From Planctomycetota bacterium (lineage in GTDB: Bacteria; Planctomycetota; UBA1135; UBA2386), in assembly GCA_965228735.1 (NCBI GenBank), contig OZ245838.1:3232001-3296000 (forward strand): DNA of 64,000 nt, read 5' to 3'. Numbering within the stretch: the first letter of the stretch is position 1; every line of letters starts with the position of its first letter. Below, piece by piece: positions 1,272 to 59,183 of this stretch. The notes under the pieces are model-generated. The model was not told the origin of the DNA. It made no database searches and saw nothing but the letters and a program-made list of their open reading frames with translations. The translations under genes were made by a program, and so were the position numbers.

Positions 1272-3605
1272 ATGAAGTCACTCGCGCTCGGTCTGGTTCC
1301 CGGCTCGCTGCTCCTCGTGGCCGGTCTGTCCGCCCAAGGCCTCCCCGAATCGATCCAGTCCGACCTGCAGCCGGCCACGTCGGCCTTGCCGCGCGTGCCG
1401 ATCCACACGGCGGCTCCCGAGGGCGTCACGGCCTACGGCACCTGGGCTGCCGGCGACGCCTACAAGTGCTCGTTCCACGACGGCATGACGTTCGTGCCCT
1501 ACCTCGGCGACTACCCGCAGAACCAGCCGTGGTCGTGGCGGACGACTTCGGTCCGCGCCGGCGAGGTCGAGCTGCTCGCCGCGAACGAGGACGGCCCGCT
1601 GCCGGCCGCGCACTGGCACGACGAATGGCGCTACGAGTATCGCATGGGTGCGTTCACCGAAGCCTACGACGTGCTGCACGAGGGTCTGGAGCAGACGTTC
1701 GTCGTCACCCAGCTGCCGGCCGCCGGCGACCTCGTCGTGCGCGGCGCGGTGACGTCGGATCTCTCGACGCGGGACGCGGCCGCGGCGCAACAAGAACTGA
1801 CCTTCGCCGATCGCGACGGGCTCGCGATCCTGCGCTACGGCCAGGCGCTCGCGTTCGACGCGGCCGGCAACACGACGCCGGTGACGACAGCGTTCGCCGG
1901 CGGCGAGATCACGCTGACCGTCCCCGGCGCCTGGCTCGCGCACGCGACGCTGCCGGTGACGGTCGACCCGTTGCTGACCCCCGCGATCGTCGGCTCGGCG
2001 CTCGCGAAGATCACGGACATCGGGCACGACGACCGCGCCACGACGAAGAACGTGATGTACGCGATCACGATGCGGGTCTCCAACTTCGACGACGACGTGC
2101 GGGCCTACCTGTCCGACCACGACCACACGAACAGCAACTCGGTGTTCGCGGACATCACGTCGGGGTGGGACAGTGACGACGCCTCCTGCGCGTTCGTCGG
2201 TGGCACGGATCGCTGGGTCATCGCGCTGCGCCGCTACTTCCCGACGTGGGGCATCCGCCGCAGCCACCTGCGGGCGCACCTGCACGACAGCGCCGACCCC
2301 CAGTTCCTCACGAACGTGATCTACATGAGCACGCCGACCGGTCACAACGACTGGCGCCCGGACGTCGGCGGCGTCGAGGGCAACGCGAGCGGCAACAACG
2401 CGCTCGTCGTGTTCCAGCGCGAGGACAACGCGATCTCGCCGTACACCGGCAACTTCCGCGACACGGATACGAGCGCGACGTGGGCCGTGCTGCTCGAGAC
2501 CGCGTCCCCGAGCGGCTCGTTCGGCACGCCGACGCGTTACCTGAGCGGACCATCGCAGGACGCGGAACGGCCGTCGGTCCAGCCGATGGCCGAGGGTGGC
2601 TCGCAGTTCTTCTGGGTCGTCGGCGCGCAGCATTACGCCAGCTTCCTGCCGGACGACGACTGGGACGTGTTCGTCGCGCGCATCGACCAATCGGGCAACC
2701 TGCTGCCGGGCTACTGGAAGCCCGAGATGCACGCCGCCGACACGCACCACCAGCTCGGCGTGCAGCTCGACGGCCAGGACGGACGCTACCTCGCGTGCTA
2801 CTCCACCGTGCAACGGCCGACGACGCCCGCGAAGTACGGCAACGTGCGCGGGGAACGTCTCTGCGTCGAACGCTTCGACTGGAGTCAGAGTTCGTCGGCG
2901 ACGCCCGTGACCTACCCGATGGTCGAGATCGAGACCGCGAGCACGCCCGTGTTCGAACCGGGTGGGGTCGCGTTCGACAGCAACGATCGCTCGCACTTCG
3001 CCATCGGCTACCGCGACATGACAGCGACGCTGCGGGCGGTCAAGTACGCGCGCGTCGGCTACACCGGCAACGTCACCGAAGGCCCAGCGTTGCTCTTCGC
3101 AGCGGCCGGCATGACGCCGTCGAACGCGAGCTGCATCTACATCGGCGATCTTCGTCGCTTCGCGTTCTGCTACAGCGCGCCGCTCGCGACGCCGCGGATC
3201 TACGGCCGTTCGCTCGCGGACGCCCCGGCGCCGCCGGTCAGCGCGACCGGCTTCGGCTGCAGCCCGGCCACCATCAGCTGGAGCGGCCGCCGCCAGATCG
3301 GTTCGGAGTTCGAGACGATCCGCATCCAGGGCGCCGGCAACGGCGCGGGCAACTTCATGCTCGTGTCCCTCGCCAGCGCCGATCAGCTGATGATCTACCC
3401 GGGCGTCGCGAGCGGCTGCCGCCTGCTCGTCGACAACGGTCCGGCGTTCCTCGGAACGATGCCGTTCCGCGCCGGCAACAACGCGTCGTGGCGCTTCCCG
3501 CTGCCCGAATGGCTGCCGACCACGACGCTCTACTTCCAGGACTGGATCCTCAGCGGCCACTCGTTCGAGAGCTCGCGCCGGCTCGCGGTCACCGTCGTCA
3601 AGTAG
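1272..3605 (+). CDS. Large secreted beta-rich protein with shared C-terminal domain
   Basis: 777-aa ORF; signal peptide ending LSA-Q; N-terminal domain ending VTVDP; C-terminus GFGC...GC...LYFQDW...SSRRL. Confidence 0.8.
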   Translation: MKSLALGLVPGSLLLVAGLSAQGLPESIQSDLQPATSALPRVPIHTAAPEGVTAYGTWAAGDAYKCSFHDGMTFVPYLGDYPQNQPWSWRTTSVRAGEVELLAANEDGPLPAAHWHDEWRYEYRMGAFTEAYDVLHEGLEQTFVVTQLPAAGDLVVRGAVTSDLSTRDAAAAQQELTFADRDGLAILRYGQALAFDAAGNTTPVTTAFAGGEITLTVPGAWLAHATLPVTVDPLLTPAIVGSALAKITDIGHDDRATTKNVMYAITMRVSNFDDDVRAYLSDHDHTNSNSVFADITSGWDSDDASCAFVGGTDRWVIALRRYFPTWGIRRSHLRAHLHDSADPQFLTNVIYMSTPTGHNDWRPDVGGVEGNASGNNALVVFQREDNAISPYTGNFRDTDTSATWAVLLETASPSGSFGTPTRYLSGPSQDAERPSVQPMAEGGSQFFWVVGAQHYASFLPDDDWDVFVARIDQSGNLLPGYWKPEMHAADTHHQLGVQLDGQDGRYLACYSTVQRPTTPAKYGNVRGERLCVERFDWSQSSSATPVTYPMVEIETASTPVFEPGGVAFDSNDRSHFAIGYRDMTATLRAVKYARVGYTGNVTEGPALLFAAAGMTPSNASCIYIGDLRRFAFCYSAPLATPRIYGRSLADAPAPPVSATGFGCSPATISWSGRRQIGSEFETIRIQGAGNGAGNFMLVSLASADQLMIYPGVASGCRLLVDNGPAFLGTMPFRAGNNASWRFPLPEWLPTTTLYFQDWILSGHSFESSRRLAVTVVK

Positions 3606-3677
3606 GGCGACGAGGCAGCGGGTTCGGTGAGGGATTTCGTGGTGGGGAACGGGCAGCCGATCCCGTTCCCTGCCGAC

Positions 3678-7531: not shown

Positions 7532-7543
7532 CAGGAGTCACCG

Positions 7544-8255: not shown

Positions 8256-10793
8256 TCAGTAGTCGCCGATCGTGACTTCGAGGCCGTTGCTGGCCGCGAG
8301 TCCGTAGGGGTTGAGGCCCGGCACGAACGCGCCGGCCTGGGCGAAGATCGGGAGTCCGAGGAAGCTCGGGTCGCCCGGCATCGTGAGGCTGTAGATCGGG
8401 TCCGGGAACGGCGGCAGCATCAGCAGCGACACCGCGCCACCCGTATAGGCCACGCAGCCGGGCGCGTTCGAGCCGAGCGGCAACGCCGGGTTCACGAAGT
8501 CGAGCTGCACGAAGCCGAGCACGACGCCGTTTGGCAGGCCGGTGAGGCGGAGGTTCCAGTCACGGCAGAGGACCGGCCGCGTGTAGGACGTCAGCTGCGG
8601 GCCGTTGCAACCCGAGCCGACCGTCTGCACCGTCGCCGGCGTGACCTGGGTCGCGTTCGTCAGGCACTGCAGCGTGAAACGGCCGTCCCACGGCGAGCCC
8701 GTCGCGTTCCAGACCTGGACGATGACCTGCATGCCGGACGGACCGTTGCCGTCGAACGACTCGATCGAAGCGTAGGTCGAGTCGAGCGTGTGACCGCTGA
8801 CCTTGACGGTCGGGTTCGCGGTCGGGTCGATGTCGGGCAGGTTGACGCGGTAGCGCCCGGTCGAGAGGCGATCGATCGTCTCGGCCCCGCTCGGGCCGAA
8901 CCGGCCGTTGCTGTCCGTGTAGGCACTGTGCGGCGTGTAGCTCGTCGCGGTCGGCTGGTCCGCCCAGACGTGCGCGCCGGAGCCGTGCTCGACGGCGATC
9001 GGCGCCGCGACCTCGCTGTAGCTCACGATGAACCGGCCATCCGTGAGGTTGCCGAAGACGTCCCGAACGCGAATCAGCGCGACCAGGTCGCCCGTCCCGC
9101 TGGACCACGACGTCACCTTCGGGCGCGTCAGCGACGTGCCGTACGGAGTGACCTGGACGTTGCCGTACTCCGGCCCCGTGGACCCGAGGTTCGGGAACGT
9201 CACCGTGTAGGAGCCGATCGCCGTCCGCGCGACCGTGGGCGCACCCCGATCACCGTTCCAGCTGTAGGCGCCCAGCGGCGTGTAGCTGGACGCCGTCGCG
9301 TTGTTGGCCCAACAGTAGGCCTCGCGCGCGGTCGGGTTGCCGCCGTAACGCCACTGCATCGTGAAGTCGCGATCGCCGGCCGGGTTGCCGAACGCGTCGA
9401 ACAGCAGCACGTTGACCTGGGCCTCGTCGCCGATCTGGAACCAGCTCTTGACGACCGCCGTGTGGTTGCCATCGACGGCCGTGAGGTGCGGCACGCCGCC
9501 GACCGACGGTGCGCCGCCCGGCACGTGAACCGTGAACGCGTTGCTCGAGCTGCCCCGCGTGACGTTCAACGGATCACCTTCGGTCGAGAACTGCTGCCCC
9601 GCTGCCGGCACGAACGACTGACCCTGACCGAGCGGTTCGACGTTGGCCCACGCGACGATCGGCGTCGCCGCCGGACGGTTGGTCAGGAACAGCAGCACGA
9701 ATCGCGTATCCGTCGCACCCCCGGTTGCATCGAAGGTCGTGACGATCACGTTCGTCCCGCCGCAGCCATCGCTGTCCCACGAGTCGACGGTCGCATAGTC
9801 GGCCCCCGAACCCTGCGCGGTGACCAGCGCGGTCGCGCTGCCCGACGGCGCGACGTTGGGCAGGTTGACCAGGTAGCGCCCGACACCGAGGCGTCGCACG
9901 GTCTCGGCATCCGGCGGCCCCTCGCGGCCGTTGCTGTCCGTGTACGTGCCGTTCGGCCGATAGAACGACCCGATCGGATCGTTGGCGTAGACGTACGCGC
10001 CGGAGCCATCGCGCTCGTTGATCGGCGCCGCGGACTCACAATACGAACAGATGAACCGCGAGTCGGTCGGCTGACCCGTCATGTCGAAGCAGCGCACGTT
10101 CACGACCGTGTCGCCGGCGCTGTTGCCCCAGTTGAACACCTTCGCGCGGACCGGCAACGCGCCGTACGGCGTGATCTCGACGCAGCCGCGCTCGTCACCG
10201 AGAGCCGCCAGCCCCGGGAACCGCACCTGATACGTCCCCACGGCACTGCGCGTGACCGTCGGGTTGCCGCGATTGCCGTTCCAGCTGTAGCTCGTCGACG
10301 GCGTGTAGCTCGCGGCCGTCGCGTTGTTCGCGAAGACGTAGGCCTCGCGGCGCGCGAACGGACCTTCGTAGCGCCAGTGCACGGTGAACCTGGCATCGTT
10401 GGCCGGACCGCCGAGGCTGTCGTAGAGCGCGACGCGAGCCTGGACATCACCAGTCGCGGTGAGCCAGCTCTGCACGACGGCCGTGTGGTTGCCGTTCAAC
10501 GCCGTCGCGTGCACGCAGCCGCCAATGGCCGGCGCGGCGCCCGGAATCGTCACCTGGAACTCGTTGTTGCTCGCGCCGCGGGCCACGAGGATCGTGCCGC
10601 CGGCGGTCGAACACTGGTAGGAAGTCGACGGCGTGAAGACGAGGCCCTGCCCGGCGGGCGAGACCCGCGCCCACGCAACCTCTTGCGCCGTGACATCGGG
10701 AGTCGTCGCGCCCAACGCGGCAGCGACCAGGAATGCGAGGCCACACCGACGCAGCGGCGGACCGGAGGAGAGCCGGAGATCAGGATCGTTCAT
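8256..10793 (-). CDS. Secreted protein with six tandem ~110-aa beta repeats and shared C-terminal domain
   Basis: Start ATG 10793 gives a signal peptide ending VTA-Q; (ABC)x2 repeat layout; C-terminus GSGC...PGC...IFAQ...SNGLEVTIG. Confidence 0.8.
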   Translation of the reverse strand: MNDPDLRLSSGPPLRRCGLAFLVAAALGATTPDVTAQEVAWARVSPAGQGLVFTPSTSYQCSTAGGTILVARGASNNEFQVTIPGAAPAIGGCVHATALNGNHTAVVQSWLTATGDVQARVALYDSLGGPANDARFTVHWRYEGPFARREAYVFANNATAASYTPSTSYSWNGNRGNPTVTRSAVGTYQVRFPGLAALGDERGCVEITPYGALPVRAKVFNWGNSAGDTVVNVRCFDMTGQPTDSRFICSYCESAAPINERDGSGAYVYANDPIGSFYRPNGTYTDSNGREGPPDAETVRRLGVGRYLVNLPNVAPSGSATALVTAQGSGADYATVDSWDSDGCGGTNVIVTTFDATGGATDTRFVLLFLTNRPAATPIVAWANVEPLGQGQSFVPAAGQQFSTEGDPLNVTRGSSSNAFTVHVPGGAPSVGGVPHLTAVDGNHTAVVKSWFQIGDEAQVNVLLFDAFGNPAGDRDFTMQWRYGGNPTAREAYCWANNATASSYTPLGAYSWNGDRGAPTVARTAIGSYTVTFPNLGSTGPEYGNVQVTPYGTSLTRPKVTSWSSGTGDLVALIRVRDVFGNLTDGRFIVSYSEVAAPIAVEHGSGAHVWADQPTATSYTPHSAYTDSNGRFGPSGAETIDRLSTGRYRVNLPDIDPTANPTVKVSGHTLDSTYASIESFDGNGPSGMQVIVQVWNATGSPWDGRFTLQCLTNATQVTPATVQTVGSGCNGPQLTSYTRPVLCRDWNLRLTGLPNGVVLGFVQLDFVNPALPLGSNAPGCVAYTGGAVSLLMLPPFPDPIYSLTMPGDPSFLGLPIFAQAGAFVPGLNPYGLAASNGLEVTIGDY

Positions 10794-10958: not shown

Positions 10959-12716
10959 GTGCAACTCGCCCGCCTCTGTTTCGCGTTCGCGGCCTTCGGC
11001 ACCGCTGGCAGCGCCCAAACCGTCGAGATCGTCCGTGACCTGCTGCCGAACGGCAGCGGCGCAGCGTACTGGTCGCTGATCGGGCACCTGCCCGGGCAAC
11101 GCGAGGTTCTCGTCGCGCTCGACGACGGCATCCACGGGTTCGAGTTGTGGCGCACGGACGGCACGGCCGCGGGCACGACGCTGTTCTATGAGTTCGCTCC
11201 CGGACCAGCCGGCACGTTCTTCCGCGGCGGCACGGTCCTCACCGATCACACCTGGTTCGTGCTCGACGTCGGCGCGGGCGAAGAACTGTGGCGCACCGAT
11301 GGCACGGTAACCGGCACGACCCGCGTCAGGACGGCGGGTGCCCTCGGCGTCGCCTCGATCAGCCGCCCGCTCGCCCACCTGGACGGCCGCTTCCTGTTCA
11401 ACACGGACAACGCGCTCTGGAGCACCGACGGGACGCACGCCGGCACCGTCAACCTCGGTTGCCCGCCCGCCTATCGCGTCGACCCAGCCGGCGCGTTCCT
11501 GCTCGTGCACGCCACGCCCGACGACATCTGGCTCACCGACGGCAACCAGGCGACGCTGCTGCGCCAGAACGCCGACGTTCGTTTCGCCGATGGAAGGGTG
11601 CTGTTGAACGAGCGCATCGTGTCCGGTGGCTCGACGGCTGCGAACCGCTTCACGATTCTCAGCGACCCGAGCCAACCGTCGGTCGTCATCAACAGCACCG
11701 TCGTCATCGCGCTGAGTCTGCCGTCGACGGTCCTGCTGCTCGACGTCAGCTTCGCCGGGTCGAGTCTCATGGCGTGGGACGGCACCGGCCCACCGCAGGT
11801 GCTGCGGACGTTCCCTTTCCTCGCGCCACTCGCGCGTCGCATCGGCGACCGCTGGGTGTTCTCCGCGTTCGATCTCACGCTGGGCGAAGAGCCGTGCTTC
11901 ACCGACGGCACCGTCCAGGGCACGCAGATCCTCGACCTCTACCCGGGCCCCGCGGGTTCGCAGCCCGACATCGTCGGCGAACTCGACGGCAAACTCCTGT
12001 TCTGGGCGCTGACGCCGGGAGCCGGCGGCGAACCCTGGGTGACCGACGGCACGATCGCCGGCACGACCCTGTTCGGTGAGACGGTCGCCGGCCCTGCCGG
12101 CACGCTGCCCGATCCCTACGGCGCGCCGATGCAGGCGGGCGACCGCCGACTGCTCTTGTCCGTGAGCGGGCGACCCTGGCTCGTCGGCGGCCCTCAGGGT
12201 CTGCAGCAGGTCGGCGGCGTGAATCTGCTCTCCGCGTGGCGGGCCGTGCCGATCGGCGACACGTGGGTGTTCCTCGCCGACGACGGCGTGCGAGGGCTCG
12301 AGCTCTATCGCCTGCGCACGACGGGCACCGCGATCCCGTTGCCGGACTGCGCCGAGTTCGACCTGTTCGGTGACGGTCGCGAGTTCACCGTCGACGACCC
12401 GGTCCTCGGTGCGACCATCCATGCCCGCGCAACGGGTCTCCAGCCGACCGACCTCGGTGTCGCCATGCTCGGCCACCCGGCAATGTCGCCGGCCTACCTC
12501 GGCGACAACTGCTATCTGCAATTCGACCCGACGGTCGCTATCCCGCTCGCCGTCATCGCCGATCGCGGCAACGGCTCCTGGTCGCTGCCGTTCTACGTTA
12601 CGAACACACCGGGGCTCACTGGCATCGAGCTCGTCGCGCAACCGCTGTTCCTCGACCCGGGAACGACGCCCGGGTGGGCCGGCGGGCGGGCGATATGGCT
12701 GTCGCCCGGACGGTAG
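10959..12716 (+). CDS. ELWxxDGT-repeat beta-propeller secreted protein with shared C-terminal domain
   Basis: GTG start gives a signal peptide ending GSA-Q; ELWRTDGT, ALWSTDGT, EPWVTDGT repeats; C-terminal DPVLG...NC...GIELVAQ. Confidence 0.85.
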   Translation: MQLARLCFAFAAFGTAGSAQTVEIVRDLLPNGSGAAYWSLIGHLPGQREVLVALDDGIHGFELWRTDGTAAGTTLFYEFAPGPAGTFFRGGTVLTDHTWFVLDVGAGEELWRTDGTVTGTTRVRTAGALGVASISRPLAHLDGRFLFNTDNALWSTDGTHAGTVNLGCPPAYRVDPAGAFLLVHATPDDIWLTDGNQATLLRQNADVRFADGRVLLNERIVSGGSTAANRFTILSDPSQPSVVINSTVVIALSLPSTVLLLDVSFAGSSLMAWDGTGPPQVLRTFPFLAPLARRIGDRWVFSAFDLTLGEEPCFTDGTVQGTQILDLYPGPAGSQPDIVGELDGKLLFWALTPGAGGEPWVTDGTIAGTTLFGETVAGPAGTLPDPYGAPMQAGDRRLLLSVSGRPWLVGGPQGLQQVGGVNLLSAWRAVPIGDTWVFLADDGVRGLELYRLRTTGTAIPLPDCAEFDLFGDGREFTVDDPVLGATIHARATGLQPTDLGVAMLGHPAMSPAYLGDNCYLQFDPTVAIPLAVIADRGNGSWSLPFYVTNTPGLTGIELVAQPLFLDPGTTPGWAGGRAIWLSPGR

Positions 12717-12816: not shown

Positions 12817-13752
12817 ATGCCTCCTCGCGCCTATTCGTTCGCCCTGGTGACGGCAGTCACCGCGCTGCCACTCACTGCCCAGTCCGCGAGCCTCACCGCC
12901 GCGACACCAATCACGGTCTCCGCGCAGCACGGAGCGCAGACCGCGAGCCAGACGCTACCGGCCGGGCCCCTGCCAGCGGTGCTGCAGCACAGCGCCGGAA
13001 CGCCGGCTGCGCTCGGCAGCTCCGCGACGTTGTGGACCGAGTTCCAGTCCAGCCAGGTGTCGCTCGGCGCGAACGTCCGCTTCGCGCTCCTCGTGCCCGC
13101 CACGAACAGTTCCGCGGCGATCTCGCCGAGTGAATTGGTGCTCGACCTCAGCTCGCCCGCGGGCCAGCCGATGTGGCTCCACATCGAAGGCGACTACTAC
13201 GCCTCGGCCGGGCTGCCGACGCCGCTCTTGATCGTCGACGTGTTCGATGACGGCGTGCCGGACTACTCGCTGCAATTTCCGGCCACGCCGGGCCCGATCG
13301 GTCTGCCGGGCGGCGTGAACGTGCCGACCCGGATCACCCTGAGCTCCAGCACCGTGATGTCCGGGCGCCTCGAGGTCGGCGTTCGACTGACCGCGGTGCC
13401 CGCCAACACCGTCATCAACTCGTCCGGCGGGCAGTGCGCCCTCCTCCAGTACGGTCTGCAGCCGCGCTTCGACGGCGGTCTCTCGTACTCCGCTTCGGCG
13501 CCGTCACAGTTCACGCCCGTCGCGGTCGTCTTCGGCCTCGCGCCGATGCCGCAGCTGCTCGGCAGCGCGGTCGGAATTCCGTGCATCGGACTGCCGCGCC
13601 CCGACATCGTGATCCTGCACCCGTTCGGCGGCGGCGACGGCACGCTCGCGATCCCGCAGGCCGCCCGCCCGATCCGGCTGTACACCCAGGCCATCATGCC
13701 GTCCGGGAACGCGATCCGCACGAGCGAGGCGTTCACCATCAACGCGAACTGA
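12817..13752 (+). CDS. Secreted hypothetical protein (paralog of 55928 and 56986 genes) with shared C-terminal domain
   Basis: Signal peptide ending LTA-Q; motifs LPAGPLP, DVFDDG, PRFDGG, PC..LPRPD, LYTQA shared with the two paralogs. Confidence 0.8.
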   Translation: MPPRAYSFALVTAVTALPLTAQSASLTAATPITVSAQHGAQTASQTLPAGPLPAVLQHSAGTPAALGSSATLWTEFQSSQVSLGANVRFALLVPATNSSAAISPSELVLDLSSPAGQPMWLHIEGDYYASAGLPTPLLIVDVFDDGVPDYSLQFPATPGPIGLPGGVNVPTRITLSSSTVMSGRLEVGVRLTAVPANTVINSSGGQCALLQYGLQPRFDGGLSYSASAPSQFTPVAVVFGLAPMPQLLGSAVGIPCIGLPRPDIVILHPFGGGDGTLAIPQAARPIRLYTQAIMPSGNAIRTSEAFTINAN

Positions 13753-19649: not shown

Positions 19650-19700
19650 CGCGGCATGCTATCCAACGCGGCCGCCCGGTGGTGGTATCGTTCTCGCCCG

Positions 19701-22945: not shown

Positions 22946-25669
22946 ATGAGCAATCGCCAGCAGCCCTCCCAGACCTCCTCAAACCTCCTTGCCAAGGCCG
23001 CTTACGGCGCAGCTCTGGCCGTGATGTTCGCCGCCTGCAGCAGCGGCGGTGGCGGCGACGGCGGCGGCGGCCAGCCCGCCGGTCCGCAGCCGAACCCGAC
23101 CCCGGCCCCGACGCCCGCGAGCCTCGTCGTCGACCTCGACGTCCGGCCCGGCGCCGGCACGGGGTCGAGCCCCGGCGTCGAGCTCAATGGTCGACTCATC
23201 ATGCCGCTCGCGCCGCCCGAGACGGGCTCCGAGCTCTACATCACGGACGGCACCGTCGCGGGCACCGAGCTGCTCGTCGACATCGTGCCCGGCAGCAATC
23301 ACTCATCGCCGTACGAGCTCACGGTCGCCGGCACCCAGGTGTTCTTCACGGCGCAGAACGAACTCGGCCGCGAGCTCTGGGTGACCGACGGCACCGCTGC
23401 GGGAACCCGGGTGGTCGCCGATCTCAATCCGGGGGCGGGGTCGACGTCGTTCGACATCGTCGGCACGCTCGGCGACGAGATCTTCTTCTCGGCCTACATC
23501 GACTCGTTCGGCGTCGGCCGCGAGCTGTTCAAGACCAACGGCGGCGCAGTCTCGCTCGTCAAGGACATCGACCCGGGGTCGACGTCGTCGCGGCCGGGCC
23601 GAGGGTTCGAGTTCCAGGGCCGCCTCTACTTCTCGGCCGATGGGCCCGAAGGTGAAGAACTCTGGGCGACGGACGGCACCACGAATGGCACCGTGCTCGT
23701 CGCGGACATCGAACCCGGGTCGGGATCCAGCAACCCCGGCACCTTCATGCCCCTCGGCAGCCAACTGTTCTTCCGGGCGCGGACCGCGGCGACCGGCTAC
23801 GAGCTGTTCGTCACGGACGGCACGGCGGCCGGCACGACGCTCGTCGCGGACATTCGCCCCGGCGCGGATTCATCGAGCCCCTACCCGATGCGCGCCTTCG
23901 CAGGTGGCGTCCTGCTGCGGGCCGACGACGGCACCAACGGGCGCGAGCTGTGGCACAGCAACGGCACCGCGGCCGGCACGCGGCTCGTCAAGGACATCGA
24001 TCCCGGCGCCGCGACCTCGGACCCGCGCGAGGTCTTCGTGTTGACGCCCAATCTCGCCGTGTTCGTCGCGACGACGGCGTCCGCGGGCCGTGAGCTGTGG
24101 CGTACGGACGGCACGGAGTCCGGGACGTTTCAGCTGCGTGACATCCAACCCGGCGCCATCAGCTCGTCACCGGCCGAGCTGCAGCGCTCGGGCAACGTCG
24201 TGCTCTTCCGGGCGACGACGGCATCCGAAGGCCGCGAGCTGTGGATGACCGACGGCACGGCGTTCGGCACGACCCTCCTCGCCGACCTCAACCCCGGAAC
24301 CGAGGATTCGAGCCCGGCCGCCCGCGGCACCGTCAACGGCATCGCGCTCTACAATGCCACGGACGGCGTCAACGGGTATGAACTCTGGGCCGCGACGCAG
24401 GCCGGGACGACCCCGATCGATCTCACGCCGCCATCGAGCGACGGTTCGGTGCCGCGGCAGTTCGTCAAACTCGGCAGCCGCGCGATATTCACGGCCGTCG
24501 GCGGTGACGTCGGCAGCGAGCTGTTCGCGTCCGACGGCACGGCAGCAGGCACGATGCTGCTCGCCGACCTGGTCCCGGGCGGCGGCGGCAGCGCGCCGAA
24601 GAACCTCACCGTCCTCGGTGACCAGGTCCTCTTCACCGCGTCGCAGACCGGCATCGGCGAGGAGTTGTTCGTCACGGATGGCACGCCGCTCGGCACCCGC
24701 CTGCTCCGAGACATCGACCCGACCGGGAGCTCACGCCCGCGCGGCTTCGCCCGCCTCGGCGACGAAGCGGCGTTCTTCGTCGGCCTCATCGACTACGAGC
24801 TGTGGATGACGAACGGGACGACGAACGGCACGCGACGCCTCGCGCTGTCATTGCGCGATACGTCGGCCATGACCGAGTTTCAGGGCCGACTGTTCTTCGG
24901 CGCCGAGGGCGATCCGAGCACCGGCACGGAACTGTGGGTCACGGACGGCACAGCAAACGGCACGGGCCTGTTCGCGGACCTGCGGCCGGGCAGTTCGAGC
25001 AGCAGGCCGAACATGCTCGGCGTGGTCAACGACCGCCTCGTGTTCGTGGCGCGGGTCGACAACGGCTACCAGCTGTTCGTTTCCGACGGCACCCCGGCCG
25101 GCACCGTCCAACTCGATCCCAACCCGACCGGGTCCCTGAGTTCGAGCACCCAGGTCATCGCCGAACTGCCGACGGGCCTGCTGCTGCAGGTGACGACCGA
25201 CGGGCAGCCGCAGATCTGGTTCACGGACGCCACCCTGGCCGGCACCCGCAAGGTCGCGGACGCCTACTCGGTCTCCGGCAGTCCGCCCTACGGCTCGGCC
25301 GTACTCGGTGACGTTGCGTACTTCGCCGCGACCACGGGGCTCGACACCAACTACGAGCTGTGGAAGAGCGACGGCACCGTCGCCGGCACGGGTCTCGCCG
25401 CGGAGATCTTCGACGGGCCGATGTGGTCGCTGCCGCGCTACTTCGTCAAGGTCGACGAGACCCTCGCGTTCTTCCATGCCCGCGACATCGATCACGGCGG
25501 CGAATTGTGGCAGGTGACGGACACGGGCGAGATCACGCGGCGCACCGACCTGCGGCCTGGCCGCCCGGACGGGCACGGCCTGCCCGGCGTGATCCTCGGC
25601 GATCAGCTGCTGTTCACCGGCGACGACGGCGAGACCGGCGCGGAGCTCTTCAAGATCGCCGTGCGCTGA
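22946..25669 (+). CDS. ELWxxDGT-repeat lipoprotein
   Basis: Lipobox FAAC followed by a Gly/Pro linker; more than a dozen ELW/ELF-xx-DGT repeats. Confidence 0.9.
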   Translation: MSNRQQPSQTSSNLLAKAAYGAALAVMFAACSSGGGGDGGGGQPAGPQPNPTPAPTPASLVVDLDVRPGAGTGSSPGVELNGRLIMPLAPPETGSELYITDGTVAGTELLVDIVPGSNHSSPYELTVAGTQVFFTAQNELGRELWVTDGTAAGTRVVADLNPGAGSTSFDIVGTLGDEIFFSAYIDSFGVGRELFKTNGGAVSLVKDIDPGSTSSRPGRGFEFQGRLYFSADGPEGEELWATDGTTNGTVLVADIEPGSGSSNPGTFMPLGSQLFFRARTAATGYELFVTDGTAAGTTLVADIRPGADSSSPYPMRAFAGGVLLRADDGTNGRELWHSNGTAAGTRLVKDIDPGAATSDPREVFVLTPNLAVFVATTASAGRELWRTDGTESGTFQLRDIQPGAISSSPAELQRSGNVVLFRATTASEGRELWMTDGTAFGTTLLADLNPGTEDSSPAARGTVNGIALYNATDGVNGYELWAATQAGTTPIDLTPPSSDGSVPRQFVKLGSRAIFTAVGGDVGSELFASDGTAAGTMLLADLVPGGGGSAPKNLTVLGDQVLFTASQTGIGEELFVTDGTPLGTRLLRDIDPTGSSRPRGFARLGDEAAFFVGLIDYELWMTNGTTNGTRRLALSLRDTSAMTEFQGRLFFGAEGDPSTGTELWVTDGTANGTGLFADLRPGSSSSRPNMLGVVNDRLVFVARVDNGYQLFVSDGTPAGTVQLDPNPTGSLSSSTQVIAELPTGLLLQVTTDGQPQIWFTDATLAGTRKVADAYSVSGSPPYGSAVLGDVAYFAATTGLDTNYELWKSDGTVAGTGLAAEIFDGPMWSLPRYFVKVDETLAFFHARDIDHGGELWQVTDTGEITRRTDLRPGRPDGHGLPGVILGDQLLFTGDDGETGAELFKIAVR

Positions 25670-31600: not shown

Positions 31601-32116
31601 CTACCGCCGGCGACCGATCGCTGGCGCCGACTCCTGTGGCCGGGCGACTCGCACCAGCGCATCCTCGCGCCCGAGGTCGGGGCGCCACTTCATCTCGGTC
31701 GTGCTGCGGCTGCCGTCCGCGTGCACGTACCAGTCGACGCCGGCGTCACTGCGCTCGACGGTGACGATCGGACTCCACGGGTGCGGCCCCCACGCGGCGG
31801 CGAGGCGCATCGCGCCCGTCGCGCCGTTGAGCGCGGCGACGACGGAGCCGTCCGGCAACTCGAGCTGACCGGCAACCGCCTGTTTCTCGTCGTCAGCTCG
31901 CGGCGGTTCGGCCACGCCTCCCGCGGCAGGAGCGATCACGGCGGCGCCCGACCCGGGATCCGCAGCCGAGCCCCGACCCGAATCCGCCGGCGACGACACC
32001 CCGCCGCCGGCACCTGGGTCCGCCCGCTCACCCCCACCGCCCAGCGCGACGAAACCGATGACCGCGCCGACAGCGATCGCCGCCAGCGCCACGGCGATCG
32101 CCTGCGAAGAACGCAT
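31601..32116 (-). CDS. Hypothetical membrane-anchored protein
   Basis: ATG overlaps the upstream TGA by one base; N-terminal hydrophobic helix, low-complexity linker, compact C-terminal domain. Confidence 0.65.
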   Translation of the reverse strand: MRSSQAIAVALAAIAVGAVIGFVALGGGGERADPGAGGGVSSPADSGRGSAADPGSGAAVIAPAAGGVAEPPRADDEKQAVAGQLELPDGSVVAALNGATGAMRLAAAWGPHPWSPIVTVERSDAGVDWYVHADGSRSTTEMKWRPDLGREDALVRVARPQESAPAIGRRR

Positions 32117-33195
32117 CAGAAGAACGTCGTCTGCGTGTTGGTGAAGCGACCGACACCGGCCGCGTTCGCCACGAGCGCCTGGAAGCGCAGCTCGACCCCG
32201 ACGAACGACGGGTTGATCGAACCCGGCGCGAACGCCTGCAGCTCCGCAGCACCGCCGTTCATCACGACGATGCCGAGCCCGATGTTGCCGGTGAGACTCA
32301 GATGGAACTGGCCGAGGCCCGGCAGCCCGAGCGGCGGATCGTAGGTCAGCGCACCGGCATAGATCGCGACCCCGTTGGCCGCGGAGTTGTCGTGCGCGCG
32401 CAGCGTGATGCCGTCCGACCGCGGCGCGCCGCTGATGTCGGGGAACAGCCCGCCGAGTCCGAGGTTGGACTGCGTCGTCGTCGCCCCCGTACCCTGCCGC
32501 GAGTTGTTGGGATCGAAGCCGCCGACGTGCAGCGTCGGCGCGTCGACCATGACGCCCATGATCGTCGACCAGCCGTTGCTGAAGAAGTTGCCGCCCGTCT
32601 GCACGGTCCAGTTCGCGTCCGGCGCACCCGCGCGCGGGTTCTCGCCGGGGCCGGCGGCGGTGACGGCCGCGGTGTCGGCGCGCCAGTACGAGTGCCCGTC
32701 CGACGCCGGCCACGCCGGGTTGGCCGGGAAGTCGATGCCCATGAACCACGAATCGGTGCACGGCACCGCGACCGGCGTCGTGAACGTGTCGGTCATGATC
32801 CACGACCCGCGGCCACCGGCGGCGTTCGTCGGCAGCGTCAGCGGCGAGACCCGCAGGATCTCACCCGCGGCCGTCGTGTCGATCATGCCGCCCGGATCCG
32901 CGCTGCGCAGGATGATGCCGTAGGTCTCCGACGTCGACACGTTCTCGTCCGCGCCCCAGTGATAGAAACCCGTGACCTGACAGATCGTGTCCGTGCCGCC
33001 GACACCGCGGAACCACTCGGCGCCGACCTCCTGGTGGCCTTCGCCCTGGTTGTTCCAGTCCGGGCGTCCCACGAACGTGGCGCACGTGATCGTCTGACGT
33101 TCGGGATCCTGGGGGAAGAAGACGAACGGGTTGGTCTGGGCGACGACCATCGCGGTCGAGCCGAGCACTGCCGACAAGAGACAGGTGGTGTTCAT
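32116..33195 (-). CDS. Secreted hypothetical protein with divergent shared C-terminal domain
   Basis: Signal peptide ending VVA-Q; C-terminus ...SFVGVELRFQALV...RFTN. Confidence 0.8.
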   Translation of the reverse strand: MNTTCLLSAVLGSTAMVVAQTNPFVFFPQDPERQTITCATFVGRPDWNNQGEGHQEVGAEWFRGVGGTDTICQVTGFYHWGADENVSTSETYGIILRSADPGGMIDTTAAGEILRVSPLTLPTNAAGGRGSWIMTDTFTTPVAVPCTDSWFMGIDFPANPAWPASDGHSYWRADTAAVTAAGPGENPRAGAPDANWTVQTGGNFFSNGWSTIMGVMVDAPTLHVGGFDPNNSRQGTGATTTQSNLGLGGLFPDISGAPRSDGITLRAHDNSAANGVAIYAGALTYDPPLGLPGLGQFHLSLTGNIGLGIVVMNGGAAELQAFAPGSINPSFVGVELRFQALVANAAGVGRFTNTQTTFF

Positions 33196-33454: not shown

Positions 33455-34708
33455 ATGCAACTCTCGCGACTTCTTCTTGCCTCAACCGCCACCCTCATCG
33501 CCACCGGCGCTGCCACAGCGCAAGCGAACTACGCCGAAGGCTTCGACAGCCAGGCCGGCGCCGACGTCCAGATCTGGAACGAGACCGACACCATCGTCAC
33601 GTTCGTCGACTACGGGAACATGACGGTCGGTGCGACCTCGTTCAACATCCCCGAGGCGCCGCGCCAGATCCCCGGTTCCGCGCCGACGCGCGGCGTCCTG
33701 ATGCAGTGCAACCTGACGCTCGGCTCGCGCGCCGGCGTCAACATCCTCGCGGGCGCGACCCCGATCACGTTCAGCGGGCGCTACCGCCTGTCGTACGACT
33801 GCTACATCAAGGTCGCCAACCCGGTCCCGAGCGGCGGCACGGAGCAGTGCCTGTTCGGCGTCGGCACGGACGGCAGCGACGGCACGACGACCAACCCGAT
33901 CGAGTCGCGCGGCAACCGCGGCACGGGTGCCCAGGGCGTCTACGGCTGGATCACGGGCGAGAACGGCTACTCGTTCGAGGACGCGTCGATCAACGAAGGC
34001 GCGACCAACCTCGAGCAGTACGGCGACCTGCAGCCCGGCGAAGACGTCTACTTCAACGAGGCGTTCAACCAGCCCGTCGCGGGCGGCACGAACAACGCGG
34101 CCGGCAACCAGTGGGTCCGCGTCGACGTCGACGTCGACGGCAACAACGTGCGCGTCTACTACAACGGCATCCTGTTCTTCGACGAAGCGGCGACGCTCGC
34201 GCCGACCGGCTTCGCGATGATCGGCTACGAGGATCCGTTCAACTCGATCAGCGCCTCGCCGGACGAGCAGTGGTGCATCGTCGACAACTTCCGCGTCGTC
34301 GATCCGACCGGCTGCGCGGCGGCCGGCGTGTCGGCCATCCAGGGCGCCGCCAGCGGTGCGACGGAGATCCTCAACGGTGGCGGTGAGCCGATCATCGGCC
34401 ACCCGTTCACCATCCGTCTGCGCGGCGGCACGAGCAGCGGCTTCGCGCTCCTCAACGCCGGCCTGCCGTCCCCGGTCACGATCCCGCTGCCGTTCGCCGG
34501 CTGCACGCTCAACACCGAGGTCGTCGGCACGTTCTTCAACCTGCTGATCGGCACGGACGCGCTCGGCAACGGCGAGTTCACGATCAACGTCCCGCTCGAC
34601 ACCAACTTCTGCGGCGCCGCGTTCGGCTTCCAGTTCTACTCGACGAGCGCCGCCACGCCGTGCGGCGTCGAGCACTCGGCCGGCCTGTCGATGACGATCG
34701 GCTCCTGA
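33455..34708 (+). CDS. Secreted ConA/lectin-like protein with shared C-terminal domain
   Basis: Signal peptide ending ATA-Q; beta-sandwich-like core; C-terminal PIIG...GC...FGFQF...SAGLSMTIG; followed by a terminator. Confidence 0.8.
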   Translation: MQLSRLLLASTATLIATGAATAQANYAEGFDSQAGADVQIWNETDTIVTFVDYGNMTVGATSFNIPEAPRQIPGSAPTRGVLMQCNLTLGSRAGVNILAGATPITFSGRYRLSYDCYIKVANPVPSGGTEQCLFGVGTDGSDGTTTNPIESRGNRGTGAQGVYGWITGENGYSFEDASINEGATNLEQYGDLQPGEDVYFNEAFNQPVAGGTNNAAGNQWVRVDVDVDGNNVRVYYNGILFFDEAATLAPTGFAMIGYEDPFNSISASPDEQWCIVDNFRVVDPTGCAAAGVSAIQGAASGATEILNGGGEPIIGHPFTIRLRGGTSSGFALLNAGLPSPVTIPLPFAGCTLNTEVVGTFFNLLIGTDALGNGEFTINVPLDTNFCGAAFGFQFYSTSAATPCGVEHSAGLSMTIGS

Positions 34709-54538: not shown

Positions 54539-55783
54539 TCAAAAACGGGCGACGAACTGCACGCCGCCACCGCCGAAGGCCGCCTCGTCGAGCTGGGTCG
54601 TGACCTGCACGGTCATGCGCGCGTGTTCGCTGAAGTCCCAGAGCGTGTTGAACGCGAGCTTGCCCTCGAAGCGGTCGGCGAACTCGTCATTCATCGCGTC
54701 GCGCGCGATCCGTCGCACGTTGCCGGCGAGCACCTGGGGTTCGAACGACAGCCGGCCGGAGAACGGCAGGTGGATGCGCGCGATGCCGAACCACTCCTCC
54801 CGCCGACCGCGCAGTCGGTTGTCGAGATTCTGCGTGATGCCGTCCTCCTCGAGCACGAGGTGCGAGACGCCGAGCGACCACGGCGTCTCCGGGTCGTCGT
54901 GCCAGTACTCGACGCGGAACTCACGGAAGTCGCGCCGGAAGTCCTCGGGCTCGACCGTGCCGCCGGTGAGCGGTGCCCGCGACTTGTCCGTCCATTCGAC
55001 CTCGGCCGCCCCCACGAGCCAGCTGCGCTCGCCGAGTCGCACGTGCGATTCGACGCTGCCGATCCAGCGCTGCAGCTCGTAGGCCGCAGCACCCGGCACG
55101 TCGTGAACCTCGAACGGCAACTGGCCAGAGACCTCGAACGCGACCCGATGACTCTCCGGATCGCCGAACGCCCCGGCCACCATGAGTGCGTACGCATCGG
55201 TCTGGTATTCGAGGTCCGCGTTCTTCGCCGACGGCGCGTCGACGGCGGTCAGCATGACGCGCAGCGCTTCATGCTCGTTCCGCAGCAACCAGGCCCCGAC
55301 CGAGGCGTCGACGACCGCCTTCTCCGCGAACAGCTCCGCCTGCGCGAAGACGGCGGTGCCCGGCCCGAGCTCGTACTCGAGTTCGAGCGCGGTCCGCAGG
55401 AAGCGCGTGTCCCGCGTCTCCGATTGCAGCATGTGGAAGCCCGCGGACCAGCCGCTGCCGAGCCTCTTCGTGACATCGAGCTGCCCTTCCAGCGTGAGCT
55501 CCGCGGTGCGCACCGAACCGCCGCGATACGACAGCTGATCGTGGAAGCGCGGCAGCCCGCGATTCCACCACGGCGGCAGCACGACGTAGGACGCGCGGTC
55601 CATGAAGTACTCGACCCCGCGACGGAAGTCGGAGCGGATCCCTTCGCGCTCGACGCCGAGCCAGGTCGCCCGGTTGAGGAACTGCGCGGGCAGCAGGCCA
55701 GCGCTCATCGCGCCGAAGGCCAGGATACCGAGCGCGGCGCGGACGCGGGTCGCGGTCGAACATGGCGAGGGTGTCGGTGGCAC
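54539..55783 (-). CDS. Putative outer-membrane beta-barrel protein
   Basis: Signal peptide ending LPA-Q; alternating amphipathic strands; terminal GVQFVARF; start uncertain. Confidence 0.6.
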   Translation of the reverse strand: MPPTPSPCSTATRVRAALGILAFGAMSAGLLPAQFLNRATWLGVEREGIRSDFRRGVEYFMDRASYVVLPPWWNRGLPRFHDQLSYRGGSVRTAELTLEGQLDVTKRLGSGWSAGFHMLQSETRDTRFLRTALELEYELGPGTAVFAQAELFAEKAVVDASVGAWLLRNEHEALRVMLTAVDAPSAKNADLEYQTDAYALMVAGAFGDPESHRVAFEVSGQLPFEVHDVPGAAAYELQRWIGSVESHVRLGERSWLVGAAEVEWTDKSRAPLTGGTVEPEDFRRDFREFRVEYWHDDPETPWSLGVSHLVLEEDGITQNLDNRLRGRREEWFGIARIHLPFSGRLSFEPQVLAGNVRRIARDAMNDEFADRFEGKLAFNTLWDFSEHARMTVQVTTQLDEAAFGGGGVQFVARF

Positions 55784-55927: not shown

Positions 55928-56896
55928 ATGCCGATTCGTTCCCGCACTCTCCCCCTGTTCGCGCTGGTCCTCGGGCCGGTCGTCGACCTCGCGTCCCCGC
56001 TGCAGGCCCAGACGTTTCAGATGAGCGCGGTCAACCCGGTGACGGTCCAGGCGCAGGACGCCACGCAGGTGCATACCGCCTGGCAGCCGGCTGGTCCGAT
56101 CCCGCCGTGGACGCAGCTCGCGGCCACGATCCAGGTTCCGAACTCATCGAGCCTCGCGGCCCGCGCCTATCTGGCGATGAACGCATCCCACCAGCCGCAC
56201 GTCGCACGCGGCGACCTCCAGCTCTACCTCACTGCCACCGCCGGGGCACTGGCAGAGCTCCAACCCAGCGAGTTCCTGGTCGACTTCACGAACCCGACGG
56301 CGAGCCCGGTGATGTTCACGTTCTCTCGGACGATCACCGGCACCGCCGGCACGCCGTTGCCGCTGCTCGAGGTCGACCTCATGGACGACGGCAGCGTCGA
56401 CTACACGCTCGCGGGCCCACAGCCGGAATGGCAGCGGATCGTGGCCGCCAGCGCGAACGTCCCGACTCGGATTCGACTGAGCGGCGTCCTGGCCAGTCCA
56501 GGCAGCATCGGTCTCGAGTTCCGGATCAGGGTCACGCCGGCCTACACCACGGTGACGAACACGGTCAGCGGCTGCTTCGGCGTGAACCTCGACATGCAGC
56601 CCCGGCTCGACGGCGACCTCGGCTACACCGTCGGGCTCGGCGGACTGACGGGCCCCACCGCCGTGGTGTTCGGGCTCACTCCGCAACCGCAGCTTCTCGG
56701 CACGATGTCGCAATCGAACGCCCCGTGCATGCTGTGGCCGCGGCCCGATGCCGTGATGCTGTGGCCGCAGGGGTTCGGCTCCGCAACGCTCCCGATTCCG
56801 CCAGCCGTCCGACCGATCAAGGTCCACGCGCAGAGCGTCGTGGCGTTCACCCCCTTGCTCGTGACGAGTCACGGGTATCTCGTCGATATGCGATGA
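55928..56896 (+). CDS. Secreted hypothetical protein (paralog family) with shared C-terminal domain
   Basis: LQA-Q; AGPIP, DLMDDG, SGC, PRLDG, PC..WPRPD, VHAQ. Confidence 0.8.
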   Translation: MPIRSRTLPLFALVLGPVVDLASPLQAQTFQMSAVNPVTVQAQDATQVHTAWQPAGPIPPWTQLAATIQVPNSSSLAARAYLAMNASHQPHVARGDLQLYLTATAGALAELQPSEFLVDFTNPTASPVMFTFSRTITGTAGTPLPLLEVDLMDDGSVDYTLAGPQPEWQRIVAASANVPTRIRLSGVLASPGSIGLEFRIRVTPAYTTVTNTVSGCFGVNLDMQPRLDGDLGYTVGLGGLTGPTAVVFGLTPQPQLLGTMSQSNAPCMLWPRPDAVMLWPQGFGSATLPIPPAVRPIKVHAQSVVAFTPLLVTSHGYLVDMR

Positions 56897-56985
56897 GGCT
56901 GACGCGTAACCAACCGCTGTCAGAGCGGTAGTTCTCGGCAGACCCCTGACGGCCCGACACCGTCGTAACCCAAAGCCCTCTCCAG

Positions 56986-57930
56986 ATGCTGCGACCGACC
57001 CTGTCCCGCACGCTGATCACTACCGTGATCGGCGCCTTCTCCTGTTCCTCGGCCGAGCTCACCGCGCAGTCGGCCCAGCTGACCGCGGTCACGCCGGTGA
57101 CCGTGACCGCCCAGTCCGGCGCGCAGACGATCAGCAACACGCTGCCGGCCGGTCCGCTGCCGGCCTCGAGCAACGTCCAGGCGGTCGTGGCGAACGTCGC
57201 GCGCGTCCTCGCCAGAACCGAAGCGATCGCATCGACGCACACGATCGGCGCCATTCTCGACCTCGACCTCATCGTGCCGCCCGCCGGCATGGCCGAGCTC
57301 GCACCTTGCGAACTCACGCTCGACCTGGCGAACCCGACGACGGACTTCCTGCACTACACGATCACGCGTGAACTGACGGGTTCGCCCGGCATGCCGATGC
57401 CGACGCTTTCGATCGACGTGCAGGACGACGGCACCCCCGACTTCAACCTCGTCCACTCACAGTCGACGGGGACGTTCCTGCTCTCCGGCAACACGAGCAT
57501 CCGGTCCCGCATTCAGTTGGCCGGCAGCTCGGTCGTGGCCGGAACCCAGTCCCTGCGCGTGACGATCCAGGTCACCCCGGCGACCGCGACGGTCACGAGC
57601 GCTGGCGGTCAGTGCACGTTGTTCGACTTCGGCACGACGCCGCGGTTCGACGGCGGGGTCGATGTCCAGGCGTACTCGGGTTCGGCGAGCATCCCCGCGG
57701 CCATCGTGCTCGGCCTCGGCATCCAGCCGCAGATCCTCGGCACGTTGGCCGGCGGCCCGTGCCTGCTGCTGCCGCGGCCGGACGCTCTCGTGCTGCTGCC
57801 GCAGGGCTTCGGGACGACGACGATTCCGGTTCCACAGGCGGTGCGACCGCTGCGGCTCTACACGCAAGCCGTGATGCCGGCCGGCCCCGTCATCGCGACC
57901 AGCCAGGCGTATTCGGTCTACTTCCTGTAG
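56986..57930 (+). CDS. Secreted hypothetical protein (paralog family) with shared C-terminal domain
   Basis: LTA-Q; LPAGPLP, DVQDDG, GQC, PRFDGG, PCLLLPRPD, LYTQA. Confidence 0.8.
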   Translation: MLRPTLSRTLITTVIGAFSCSSAELTAQSAQLTAVTPVTVTAQSGAQTISNTLPAGPLPASSNVQAVVANVARVLARTEAIASTHTIGAILDLDLIVPPAGMAELAPCELTLDLANPTTDFLHYTITRELTGSPGMPMPTLSIDVQDDGTPDFNLVHSQSTGTFLLSGNTSIRSRIQLAGSSVVAGTQSLRVTIQVTPATATVTSAGGQCTLFDFGTTPRFDGGVDVQAYSGSASIPAAIVLGLGIQPQILGTLAGGPCLLLPRPDALVLLPQGFGTTTIPVPQAVRPLRLYTQAVMPAGPVIATSQAYSVYFL

Positions 57931-57947
57931 ACCCGCTGCCCGCAGCG

Positions 57948-59183
57948 CTACTGCACGATCCCGCCCGCGAGCGGTGACGCGTAGACCGTGGCGCCGTCGA
58001 GCTGCGCGGCCTGCAGCCAGACCTCGACGTAGAGCAACGTCGGCGATGCGGGCAGCGTCACGCCATGAACGAACGGCGTGCCCGCAGCCGGCGCCCCCGT
58101 CGCGAGCACGAACGTCGGCCCCGCGAGTCCGAACACGGGGCCGACGACGCCGGGCAACGTCGCTACCGTCCGGTCGAACGTCGCCGCGAGCGCGAGCAGC
58201 TGACCCGATGTTCCAGGAGTCGCGGTCGCGGTCGTCGTCTGGCCGAGCTGCCAACGCGAGTCGAGCGCGAGGCCGACGAGCTCCGGCGTCGGCTGCATGT
58301 TGCCGACGAACAGCGGACCGTTCGGGATGCCGACACCGCCGGTGAGCGTCGTGCGCGCGAGCCGCGCGTTCACCGTGCCGGCGAGCGCCGCTGCGCCTGG
58401 CAGCTGGCAGGCGCTCGTGGGCGGCTGACCTGCCCCGCCCGTGACATCCGAGTCCGTGAGATGCAGCACGCCGCTGCCCGCGACCTCGACCCCGGGCGAC
58501 GGCGGCAGCATCGGCGACGGCGTGCCCATCGGACACGCCGCGTCGCCACCGATCGCGACGAGATCCGTCGCCACGACGATCCCGTCTTCGACCGTCAACG
58601 CGGTGGACGATGCGACGAGGCCCGAAGCCGCGCTCGTTGCGATGGCGCCCGCAAGGAAACAGCGCGTGAGTGACACGGTGCCACCTTGCACGGCGAGCCC
58701 GCCGCCGCCCGGCTGACCGAACACGACGCACTCGTGCGCGATCACCGTGCCGCCCGTGATCGTCACCGTGCGCGTCGGCGTCGACGTCTGGCCGGCGAGC
58801 GACCGAAACCGGCAGCCCTCGAGCGCGACGTCGCCGTCGATCGCGATGAACTGGCCGGCCGGGCCGCCGAAGAAGAGGTCGACGAGCCGCGCGCGCTGGC
58901 CGGGCGGGATCGCGATGCGCGAGTGTGACGCCGCCGTGGTCTGGCGCAGCACGGGCGCGGGACCGACCATCGTCAGCCCCTTCGTGAGCACGAACGGCGG
59001 AAAGTTGCCCGTGCCCTGGACGAACTGCAGCACGTCGCCGGGCGTGGCCTGCGCGATCACGGCGAGCAGATTGTCGCTGCCGGTGTCGCCCTCGACCTGC
59101 CAGGTCGTCTGGGCAGCTCCTACGGTGGCGAGAAACGTGATCGGCAGCAGCGCGGCGAGAACGGGTCGCATCGCCGCGAGCAT
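57948..59183 (-). CDS. Secreted beta-helix-like protein with divergent shared C-terminal domain
   Basis: AA-Q signal junction; AVIAQATPGDVL pectin-lyase-like start; Gly-rich repeats; C-terminal LPASPTL...VWLQA...ASP. Confidence 0.75.
   Translation of the reverse strand: MLAAMRPVLAALLPITFLATVGAAQTTWQVEGDTGSDNLLAVIAQATPGDVLQFVQGTGNFPPFVLTKGLTMVGPAPVLRQTTAASHSRIAIPPGQRARLVDLFFGGPAGQFIAIDGDVALEGCRFRSLAGQTSTPTRTVTITGGTVIAHECVVFGQPGGGGLAVQGGTVSLTRCFLAGAIATSAASGLVASSTALTVEDGIVVATDLVAIGGDAACPMGTPSPMLPPSPGVEVAGSGVLHLTDSDVTGGAGQPPTSACQLPGAAALAGTVNARLARTTLTGGVGIPNGPLFVGNMQPTPELVGLALDSRWQLGQTTTATATPGTSGQLLALAATFDRTVATLPGVVGPVFGLAGPTFVLATGAPAAGTPFVHGVTLPASPTLLYVEVWLQAAQLDGATVYASPLAGGIVQ

Follow-up and report, generated by a model that had tools for sequence, protein, structure and literature searches.

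Ten window genes with a common C-terminal domain

The 64,000-nucleotide stretch analyzed here (the window) spans positions 3,232,001 to 3,296,000 of contig OZ245838.1 from a Planctomycetota bacterium, and it contains ten genes whose products end in one shared domain. The original prediction, made from the window alone, described a module of ~110-125 aa at the C-terminus of secreted proteins and assigned it to a candidate uncharacterized sorting or anchoring system. We found all ten open reading frames (ORFs) in place (Table 1), with the C-terminal motifs that had been quoted for them, and each protein begins with a hydrophobic stretch followed by Ala-Gln. The last 130 aa of the ten proteins can be aligned, with 15-22% identity relative to the first row, and a Pro and a Gln are invariant; the Gln had already been singled out, while the module itself is longer than first estimated, at ~130 aa. 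A hidden Markov model (HMM) rebuilt without the window sequences recognized eight of the ten proteins at E<1e-3, always at the C-terminus, and placed the two weakest there as well (E=0.019 for 12817, E=0.11 for 32116). The final HMM, which includes the window sequences and is not a leave-out test, recognized all ten at E≤3.8e-6. Coordinates, motifs, alignment and leave-out model thus agree that the ten genes share one C-terminal module.

Judged by eye, the Cys pair expected in most copies is in place in 7 of the 10; 29539 has its first Cys segment ~210 aa upstream of the remainder. Among the passengers, as we call the parts preceding the domain, the ELWxxDGT and Kelch assignments were supported by library matches, the ConA-like one corresponds to a weak match below the cut-off, and the beta-helix label proposed for 57948 has no library match. 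The three genes described as paralogs of each other (12817, 55928 and 56986) are 36-43% identical. The starts of 8256 (~10793) and 29539 (~31500) lie later than those of the longest ORFs.

Table 1. Positions of the domain-bearing genes and related features. Coordinates are those of the window unless preceded by G000 (host genome) or G160 (a distant carrier genome); E-values are those of the leave-out model unless marked as final or given for the insert family.
Feature	Coordinates	Strand	Domain	E-value
777-aa exported protein, no library match	1272..3605	+	~3213-3602	4.5e-17 (leave-out)
845-aa exported protein, unnamed repeats; copy modelled	8256..10793	-	~8259-8663	5e-28
585-aa ELWxxDGT-repeat protein	10959..12716	+	~12324-12713	2.3e-10
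311-aa paralog 1, divergent short domain	12817..13752	+	~13360-13749	0.019 (leave-out), 4.9e-8 (final)
Internal control: ELWxxDGT protein, lipoprotein-type signal, without domain	22946..25669	+		
Kelch protein, split domain, start approximate	29539..31509	-	first strand and Cys ~30535-30570; ~210-aa cargo ~29905-30534; remaining domain 29542-29904	8e-24; insert family 8e-44
359-aa exported protein, Cys-less divergent domain, weakest copy	32116..33195	-	~32119-32508	0.11 (leave-out), 3.8e-6 (final)
417-aa exported protein, weak ConA/LamG-like match	33455..34708	+	~34316-34705	3e-15
322-aa paralog 2	55928..56896	+	~56504-56893	8.6e-5
314-aa paralog 3	56986..57930	+	~57538-57927	3.9e-6
411-aa exported protein, Cys-less domain	57948..59183	-	~57951-58340	9.6e-6
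Ig-like/Gly-rich lipoprotein loci	G000:C1:2418873, 2655148-2703361, 5166246 (L264-L267); G160 L149:2890-5592			

The repeat passenger at 8649-10793 (minus strand) consists of two long unnamed repeats, gave no Pfam match over the cut-off and belongs to a family of seven in the genome.

Census and architectures in the host genome

The host genome (G000) is a single contig of 7.19 Mb with 69% GC, 93% complete, in which we called 5,468 genes using a home-made hexamer caller, so gene starts are approximate. The GC content may point to the 'Saltatorellus' clade, for which PMC11032199 gives ~70%. The first profile, built from ten sequences, matched 146 genome ORFs, 142 of them within 15 aa of the stop codon. 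Iteration converged on 286 proteins, against none of 61,526 reversed ORFs, which excludes chance similarity. The union of profiles gave 310 carriers, and a search of C-terminal windows raised the number to at least 364 of the 5,468 genes (6.7%), with no reversed match and one internal-window match in the controls; by eye, about 17 of another 31 candidates resemble members too. The many matches anticipated for a full-genome search are therefore present.

Based on a heuristic whose internal control gave 0/286, a signal-like N-terminus was detected in 257 of the 310 carriers and in 1,661 of the 5,158 other genes, and Gln at position +1 in 215 and 552, respectively. Wrong start calls account for many of the signal-less carriers. 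The Gln after the predicted cleavage site recalls the Q-rule of Bacteroidota. Passengers are varied: 290 of them fell into 125 families, with 101 singletons.

The stop codon lies no more than 7 aa beyond the end of 263 of the 287 matches, and none of 285 proteins contains two copies. The domain is nearly always C-terminal, not always, as had been predicted. In 12 of the 310 carriers it directly follows the signal peptide, and in 13 it is followed by an extension of ~30 aa (a single-sequence fold prediction of one extended carrier reached a predicted local distance difference test score, pLDDT, of 33). About 12 proteins (14 rows, two of which were dropped by eye) consist of signal peptide and domain only. 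Finally, 22 proteins, the Kelch protein of the window included, have a split copy, in which a cargo domain separates the first Cys segment from the remainder and so lies between the two Cys. Two unrelated domains serve as inserts, one of ~210 aa in 15 proteins and one of ~155 aa in 7; the strict test for this arrangement gave 0/101 among contiguous members and 4/2,809 among non-members.

Behaviour as a tag

To describe which exported proteins carry the domain, we took 612 signal-Gln proteins of at least 330 aa, with the N-terminal class excluded, and used a body poor in Lys, Arg and Glu as a proxy for the extracellular type. The domain is on 188 of the 223 proteins with such bodies and on 24 of the 389 others, and the trend is stable over five thresholds. 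Ten of the 11 ELWxxDGT proteins in the genome carry it, the sole exception being the window lipoprotein at 22946. Likewise, only 2 of 75 long lipobox proteins (at least 330 aa) have the domain, one of them a miscalled signal-Gln protein. Lipoproteins thus avoid the domain, and we regard it as a likely alternative to lipidation.

For one passenger, the tails of its 120 close homologs comprise 94 copies of the domain, 14 Cys-rich tails and 12 others, two of which match dockerin_GC below the cut-off. Among Kelch relatives from other lineages, a Dockerin_1 tail was found over the cut-off in 2 of 13 and below it in one more, and dockerin_GC in 1 of 14. With one copy per protein, varied passengers and a position that dockerins occupy elsewhere, the domain behaves as a tag.

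The Cys-rich tail in the domain's slot ends in Q-x-W-x-R-D...S-x-G-L (last ~160 aa of P0234, P0249, P0271, P0278, P0280 and P0284). It gave a weak profile match to the last hairpin of the domain (probability 11%, E=0.003) and is possibly a sister family.

Predicted structure and sequence constraints

The AlphaFold2 model of the 8256 copy is an eight-strand sandwich of the immunoglobulin (Ig)/fibronectin type III (FnIII) kind, with a pLDDT of 94.4. Its structural matches include TEP1r (2pn5), the best at Z 8.7, an FnIII domain of Dscam (7y6e, Z 8.1) and Pel3 (4u49, Z 7.9); for the top two, the alignment covers ~89 of 135 residues at 2.5-2.7 Å. The core sandwich is common to FnIII, macroglobulin and Ig-like domains, whereas identity to them is 7-14%, the Z scores lie in the range that the tool terms 'common', and the extra first strand, the GxGC loop and the disulfide-tied insertion fall outside the range aligned.

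A coupling analysis of 465 sequences returned Cys11-Cys68 as the top pair (5.9, against 2.3 for the next), and the two Cys occur together in 358 sequences, are both absent from 42 and are mixed in 18; a disulfide between them is predicted. The first strand is coupled to the last, so the termini are predicted to be neighbours. The apolar PFG(M/A)PG and DPxAN loops are coupled to each other, and the three apolar loops, GxGC included, likely form one end of the domain. The domain includes strands apolar on both faces. Lys makes up 0.2% of residues and Asp plus Glu 5.9%, the median net charge is -4, and the copies are highly divergent, with a mean column identity of 22%. Neither a conserved last residue nor a motif upstream of the domain was seen among carriers.

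Library searches with the module gave no real match: 0/64 members matched Pfam or NCBIfam at E≤0.1, the best hit in a sequence search of the PDB has E=0.19, Foldseek gave no match at E≤1e-3 against PDB and viral structures, and the 30 nearest clusters of the ESM Atlas are all unnamed and from Planctomycetota. The ML lipid-recognition domain (PF02221) was considered and is not supported, as PF02221 has no match in the host genome; the Foldseek rows for GM2A, MD-2 and NPC2 are weak (E>1e-3, root-mean-square deviation 7-15 Å).

Distribution among Planctomycetota

A 64-row profile matched 30,242 clusters at 50% identity, and the domain is at the C-terminal end in 149 of the best 150 cluster matches. 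Among 301 Planctomycetota genomes, 66 have a match; 61 are expanded, with 5 to at least 14 matches each, and five have a single one. Presence is all-or-none at the family level among the families tallied (for instance, 8/8, 6/6 and 6/6 against 0/16, 0/17 and 0/11). The best full-length relatives of one window gene are in records labelled Planctomycetota, and a search for longer homologs returned 14 proteins, none informatively named. Of 78 Kelch-passenger loci, 31 have the domain, and each of these bears the label of a Planctomycetota group or just 'bacterium', with no Myxococcota, Phycisphaerae or Bacteroidales label among them. In G160, a small and distant carrier genome (2.31 Mb read, 59% GC, 86% complete), the first profile finds 25 copies and the final one 39, with no reversed match. 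The domain is thus, as had been proposed, a lineage-specific, uncatalogued tag on varied Sec-exported passengers.

In two single-copy genomes outside the expansion (L261 and L263), a haem peroxidase with the domain continues into an unrelated, unnamed C-terminal module of ~330 aa, which is perhaps that lineage's own tag.

Export machinery and candidate partners

The original prediction also proposed that dedicated machinery serves the domain. SprA and GldN, both type IX secretion system (T9SS) proteins, were found in none of three carrier genomes, with both Bacteroidales controls positive, and PorV in none of five, with the control positive in one. A C25 peptidase is present in four of five carrier genomes and absent from the same-family genome G142. 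Host and G160 have 121 exported and 125 multi-transmembrane proteins in common; 96 of these exported proteins, 8 other common proteins and a barrel-like protein of the window were scanned against Pfam. No SprA-sized or other large barrel is common to the two genomes, as far as the 2.31 Mb read of G160 goes.

Both genomes have five secretins, GspE/F-like neighbours, GspD-like genes and pseudopilins, as well as a paired secretin-TPR-ExbB-ExbD-ExbD locus (TPR, tetratricopeptide repeat). In this locus (G000:C1:6769699-6784599, L268; G160 L143), two long TPR-bearing secretins flank TPR, ExbB-like and two ExbD-like genes, and a domain-like ORF within it (G000:6774252) lacks a signal peptide and is fragment-like. 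The paired TPR-secretin is weakly similar to Amuc_1098, and the accessible text of PMC12204202 describes related TPR/tolQ/tolR loci of unknown function in the Planctomycetes-Verrucomicrobia-Chlamydiae group. We rejected the paired secretin as a partner because it is phylum-wide, its N-terminal part being found in 77 of 80 Planctomycetota.

A pseudopilin-type operon conserved in both genomes (G000:C1:1397583-1412826, L269; G160 L153) encodes a giant pilin-like protein of 1,735 aa, which has no library match.

The best co-distribution with the domain was that of Ig-like/Gly-rich lipoproteins (Table 1): 37 of 40 expanded genomes have them, as do 3 of 5 single-copy and 2 of 35 negative ones. These proteins have 900-1,200 aa, an Ig-like N-terminal part, a long Gly-rich core and no NCBIfam match, and they are candidates for a surface layer or scaffold. 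As one-to-one partners they were rejected, being absent from all three genomes of the carrier family f70, and some of the matches are to low-complexity Gly stretches. A 722-aa thioredoxin-like protein, which 20 of 24 expanded genomes and 4 of 18 others have in full length, was likewise discarded; it is an unnamed protein at G000:C1:6992590-6994758 (L270) with a conserved Cys/His-rich N-terminal part. The last candidate, the window barrel, is a 389-aa protein at 54539-55708 (minus strand). Its gene diverges from the domain gene at 55928, and its terminal strand is barrel-like, with Phe at the end. It has no Pfam match and was rejected because just 2 of 42 genomes have a homolog.

Dedicated machinery is therefore unsupported, because the T9SS core was not found and none of the four candidates tracks the domain one-to-one. 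Since the carriers are kin, presence profiles cannot separate a partner from a clade marker.

Elsewhere in the window, at 4835-8212 and 19656-22867, are two adjacent gene pairs that, by eye, appear to encode a Ser/Thr kinase and an extracytoplasmic function sigma factor.

Interpretation

We estimate the probability at about one half that the domain is an uncleaved, non-covalent envelope anchor, kept on the mature protein in place of a lipid anchor. The N-terminal, extended, stand-alone and split copies speak for such a retained anchor rather than for an export signal that is cleaved off, and the domain does not appear to be a cleavable tail of the T9SS type. Cargo would leave the cytoplasm through Sec, mostly with Gln at +1, as the heuristic signal pattern suggests; it would then fold in the periplasm, where the coupled Cys may become bonded. 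The folded protein would pass through a secretin-based channel of a type II secretion system (T2SS) kind, a route that we consider likely because secretins are present and T9SS is not. Docking might finally occur through the apolar end where the GxGC, PFG(M/A)PG and DPxAN loops meet, the target possibly being a lipid or glycan of the outer membrane or a lineage-specific lipoprotein layer.

Several points weigh against a retained anchor. None of the four candidates proved to be its partner, and ~92% of copies are at the extreme C-terminus, as a translocation signal predicts. The composition filter stands in for extracellular location and may track beta-rich folds. Of 23 scanned carriers in G160, five belong to the di-haem cytochrome c peroxidases, usually periplasmic enzymes, and 8 of 364 carriers in the host contain CXXCH. 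In the 22 split copies, a single cut before the first strand would remove the inserted cargo too, and such a cut could still be made where more cargo lies upstream.

A wider proposal, which we put forward tentatively and think possible without expecting it, is that the domain is both address and anchor for nearly the whole outer secretome (~7% of genes) of deep-branching Planctomycetota. It would be an undescribed display system based on a folded, uncleaved module, set at either end of the cargo or wrapped around it, whose reader is unrelated to T9SS, sortases and cohesins.

Alternatively, the domain could be the export signal of a dedicated, undescribed outer-membrane translocon, an analogue of T9SS, and perhaps be cleaved after export. 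We consider this unlikely, even if single copies, their C-terminal position and all-or-none presence by family would suit it, as would the coverage of most of the extracellular-type secretome and an Ig-like fold, which T9SS C-terminal domains (CTDs) have according to the accessible text of PMC11285876. Such a signal accounts poorly for copies that are N-terminal, extended, stand-alone or split, there is no conserved terminal residue or upstream cleavage motif, and neither SprA, GldN and PorV nor, in the 2.31 Mb read of the 86%-complete G160, a common large barrel was found.

Another explanation makes the domain a portable handle for an ordinary T2SS or for the paired secretin system, with cargo released and not anchored. 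GspD/E/F-like genes, pseudopilins and five secretins in both genomes examined would provide the route; the accessible text of PMC7949064 describes the T2SS as moving folded proteins and gives an Fn3 loop a share in the signal of Pel3, which is among our fold matches. Dozens of generic FnIII/Ig chains, however, match equally well, secretins are phylum-wide whereas the domain is not, and neither the exclusion of lipoproteins nor the exchange with dockerins is explained; we judge it improbable.

It is more doubtful that the domain self-assembles into a coat, a fibre or an S-layer-like lattice on which the passengers are displayed: the ~12 proteins of signal and domain only, the very high copy number and the strands apolar on both faces would be in keeping with such an assembly, but 22% mean column identity is difficult for one lattice, and tandem copies are absent. 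A generic Ig-like module for stability or substrate binding, spread by domain shuffling without any targeting role, is the least probable explanation: a generic fold (best Z 8.7) and single copies in five genomes without expansion speak for it, but strict single copy, terminal bias, the 188/223 versus 24/389 partition, lipoprotein exclusion, the slot swap with dockerins and the second, different tail appended behind the domain in two outside genomes do not fit.

Split and stand-alone copies make the choice between anchor and signal directly testable.

Comparison with known systems

A close parallel is the type A CTD of T9SS (TIGR04183/PF18962, Bacteroidota), which, like the predicted fold of the domain, is a C-terminal Ig-like sandwich, present once on each of many unrelated Sec-exported proteins. 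The domain differs in having ~130 aa with a Cys pair, against the 72 positions of the TIGR04183/PF18962 model, and in occurring also in N-terminal, extended, stand-alone and split form. TIGR04183/PF18962 matched none of the ten window proteins and none of the 64 members. The model is Ig-like, and the T9SS CTD is not among the 50 structural matches listed. According to the accessible parts of the sources, T9SS CTDs rely on a C-terminus that is conserved (PMC11285876), and PorU cleaves them (PMC4804311, PMC8545088).

Dockerin type I (PF00404) and the GC-type dockerin (NF041540) occupy the same terminal slot on homologous passengers in other Planctomycetota. The dockerin is a retained docking module. 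The domain, in contrast, is all-beta, far more divergent and devoid of Asp-rich EF-hand repeats; NF041540 had no match in five genomes, and domain members have no dockerin HMM match. No cohesin-like counterpart was found, the Ig-like/Gly-rich lipoproteins being co-distributed with the domain.

The many-to-one logic of a C-terminal tag is also that of PEP-CTERM/exosortase and GlyGly-CTERM/rhombosortase, as presented in the accessible text of PMC1569441 and PMC3237569. Compared with PEP-CTERM, GlyGly-CTERM and MYXO-CTERM, the domain is folded, soluble and all-beta, has neither terminal transmembrane helix nor basic tail, and varies in its last residue.

We found no description of the domain in the literature searched, most subscription papers lying outside that search; it is unmentioned in the accessible text of bioRxiv 10.1101/817700, bioRxiv 10.64898/2026.10.26.761892 and PMC11032199, and the gained-family tables of the last could list members. 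The family, with over 30,000 clusters (50% identity), is without an entry in the libraries searched, and the domain marks ~1 gene in 15 in the host genome, which makes it a ready marker of the surface or secreted proteome in a Planctomycetota lineage that is largely uncultured. Should the domain prove to be an uncleaved anchor, it would add to the ways in which diderm bacteria display proteins at the surface, beside lipidation, T9SS with anionic lipopolysaccharide (A-LPS), dockerins and PEP-CTERM. It is a real, very large and uncatalogued domain, which works like the known terminal sorting and anchoring tags and belongs to none of them.

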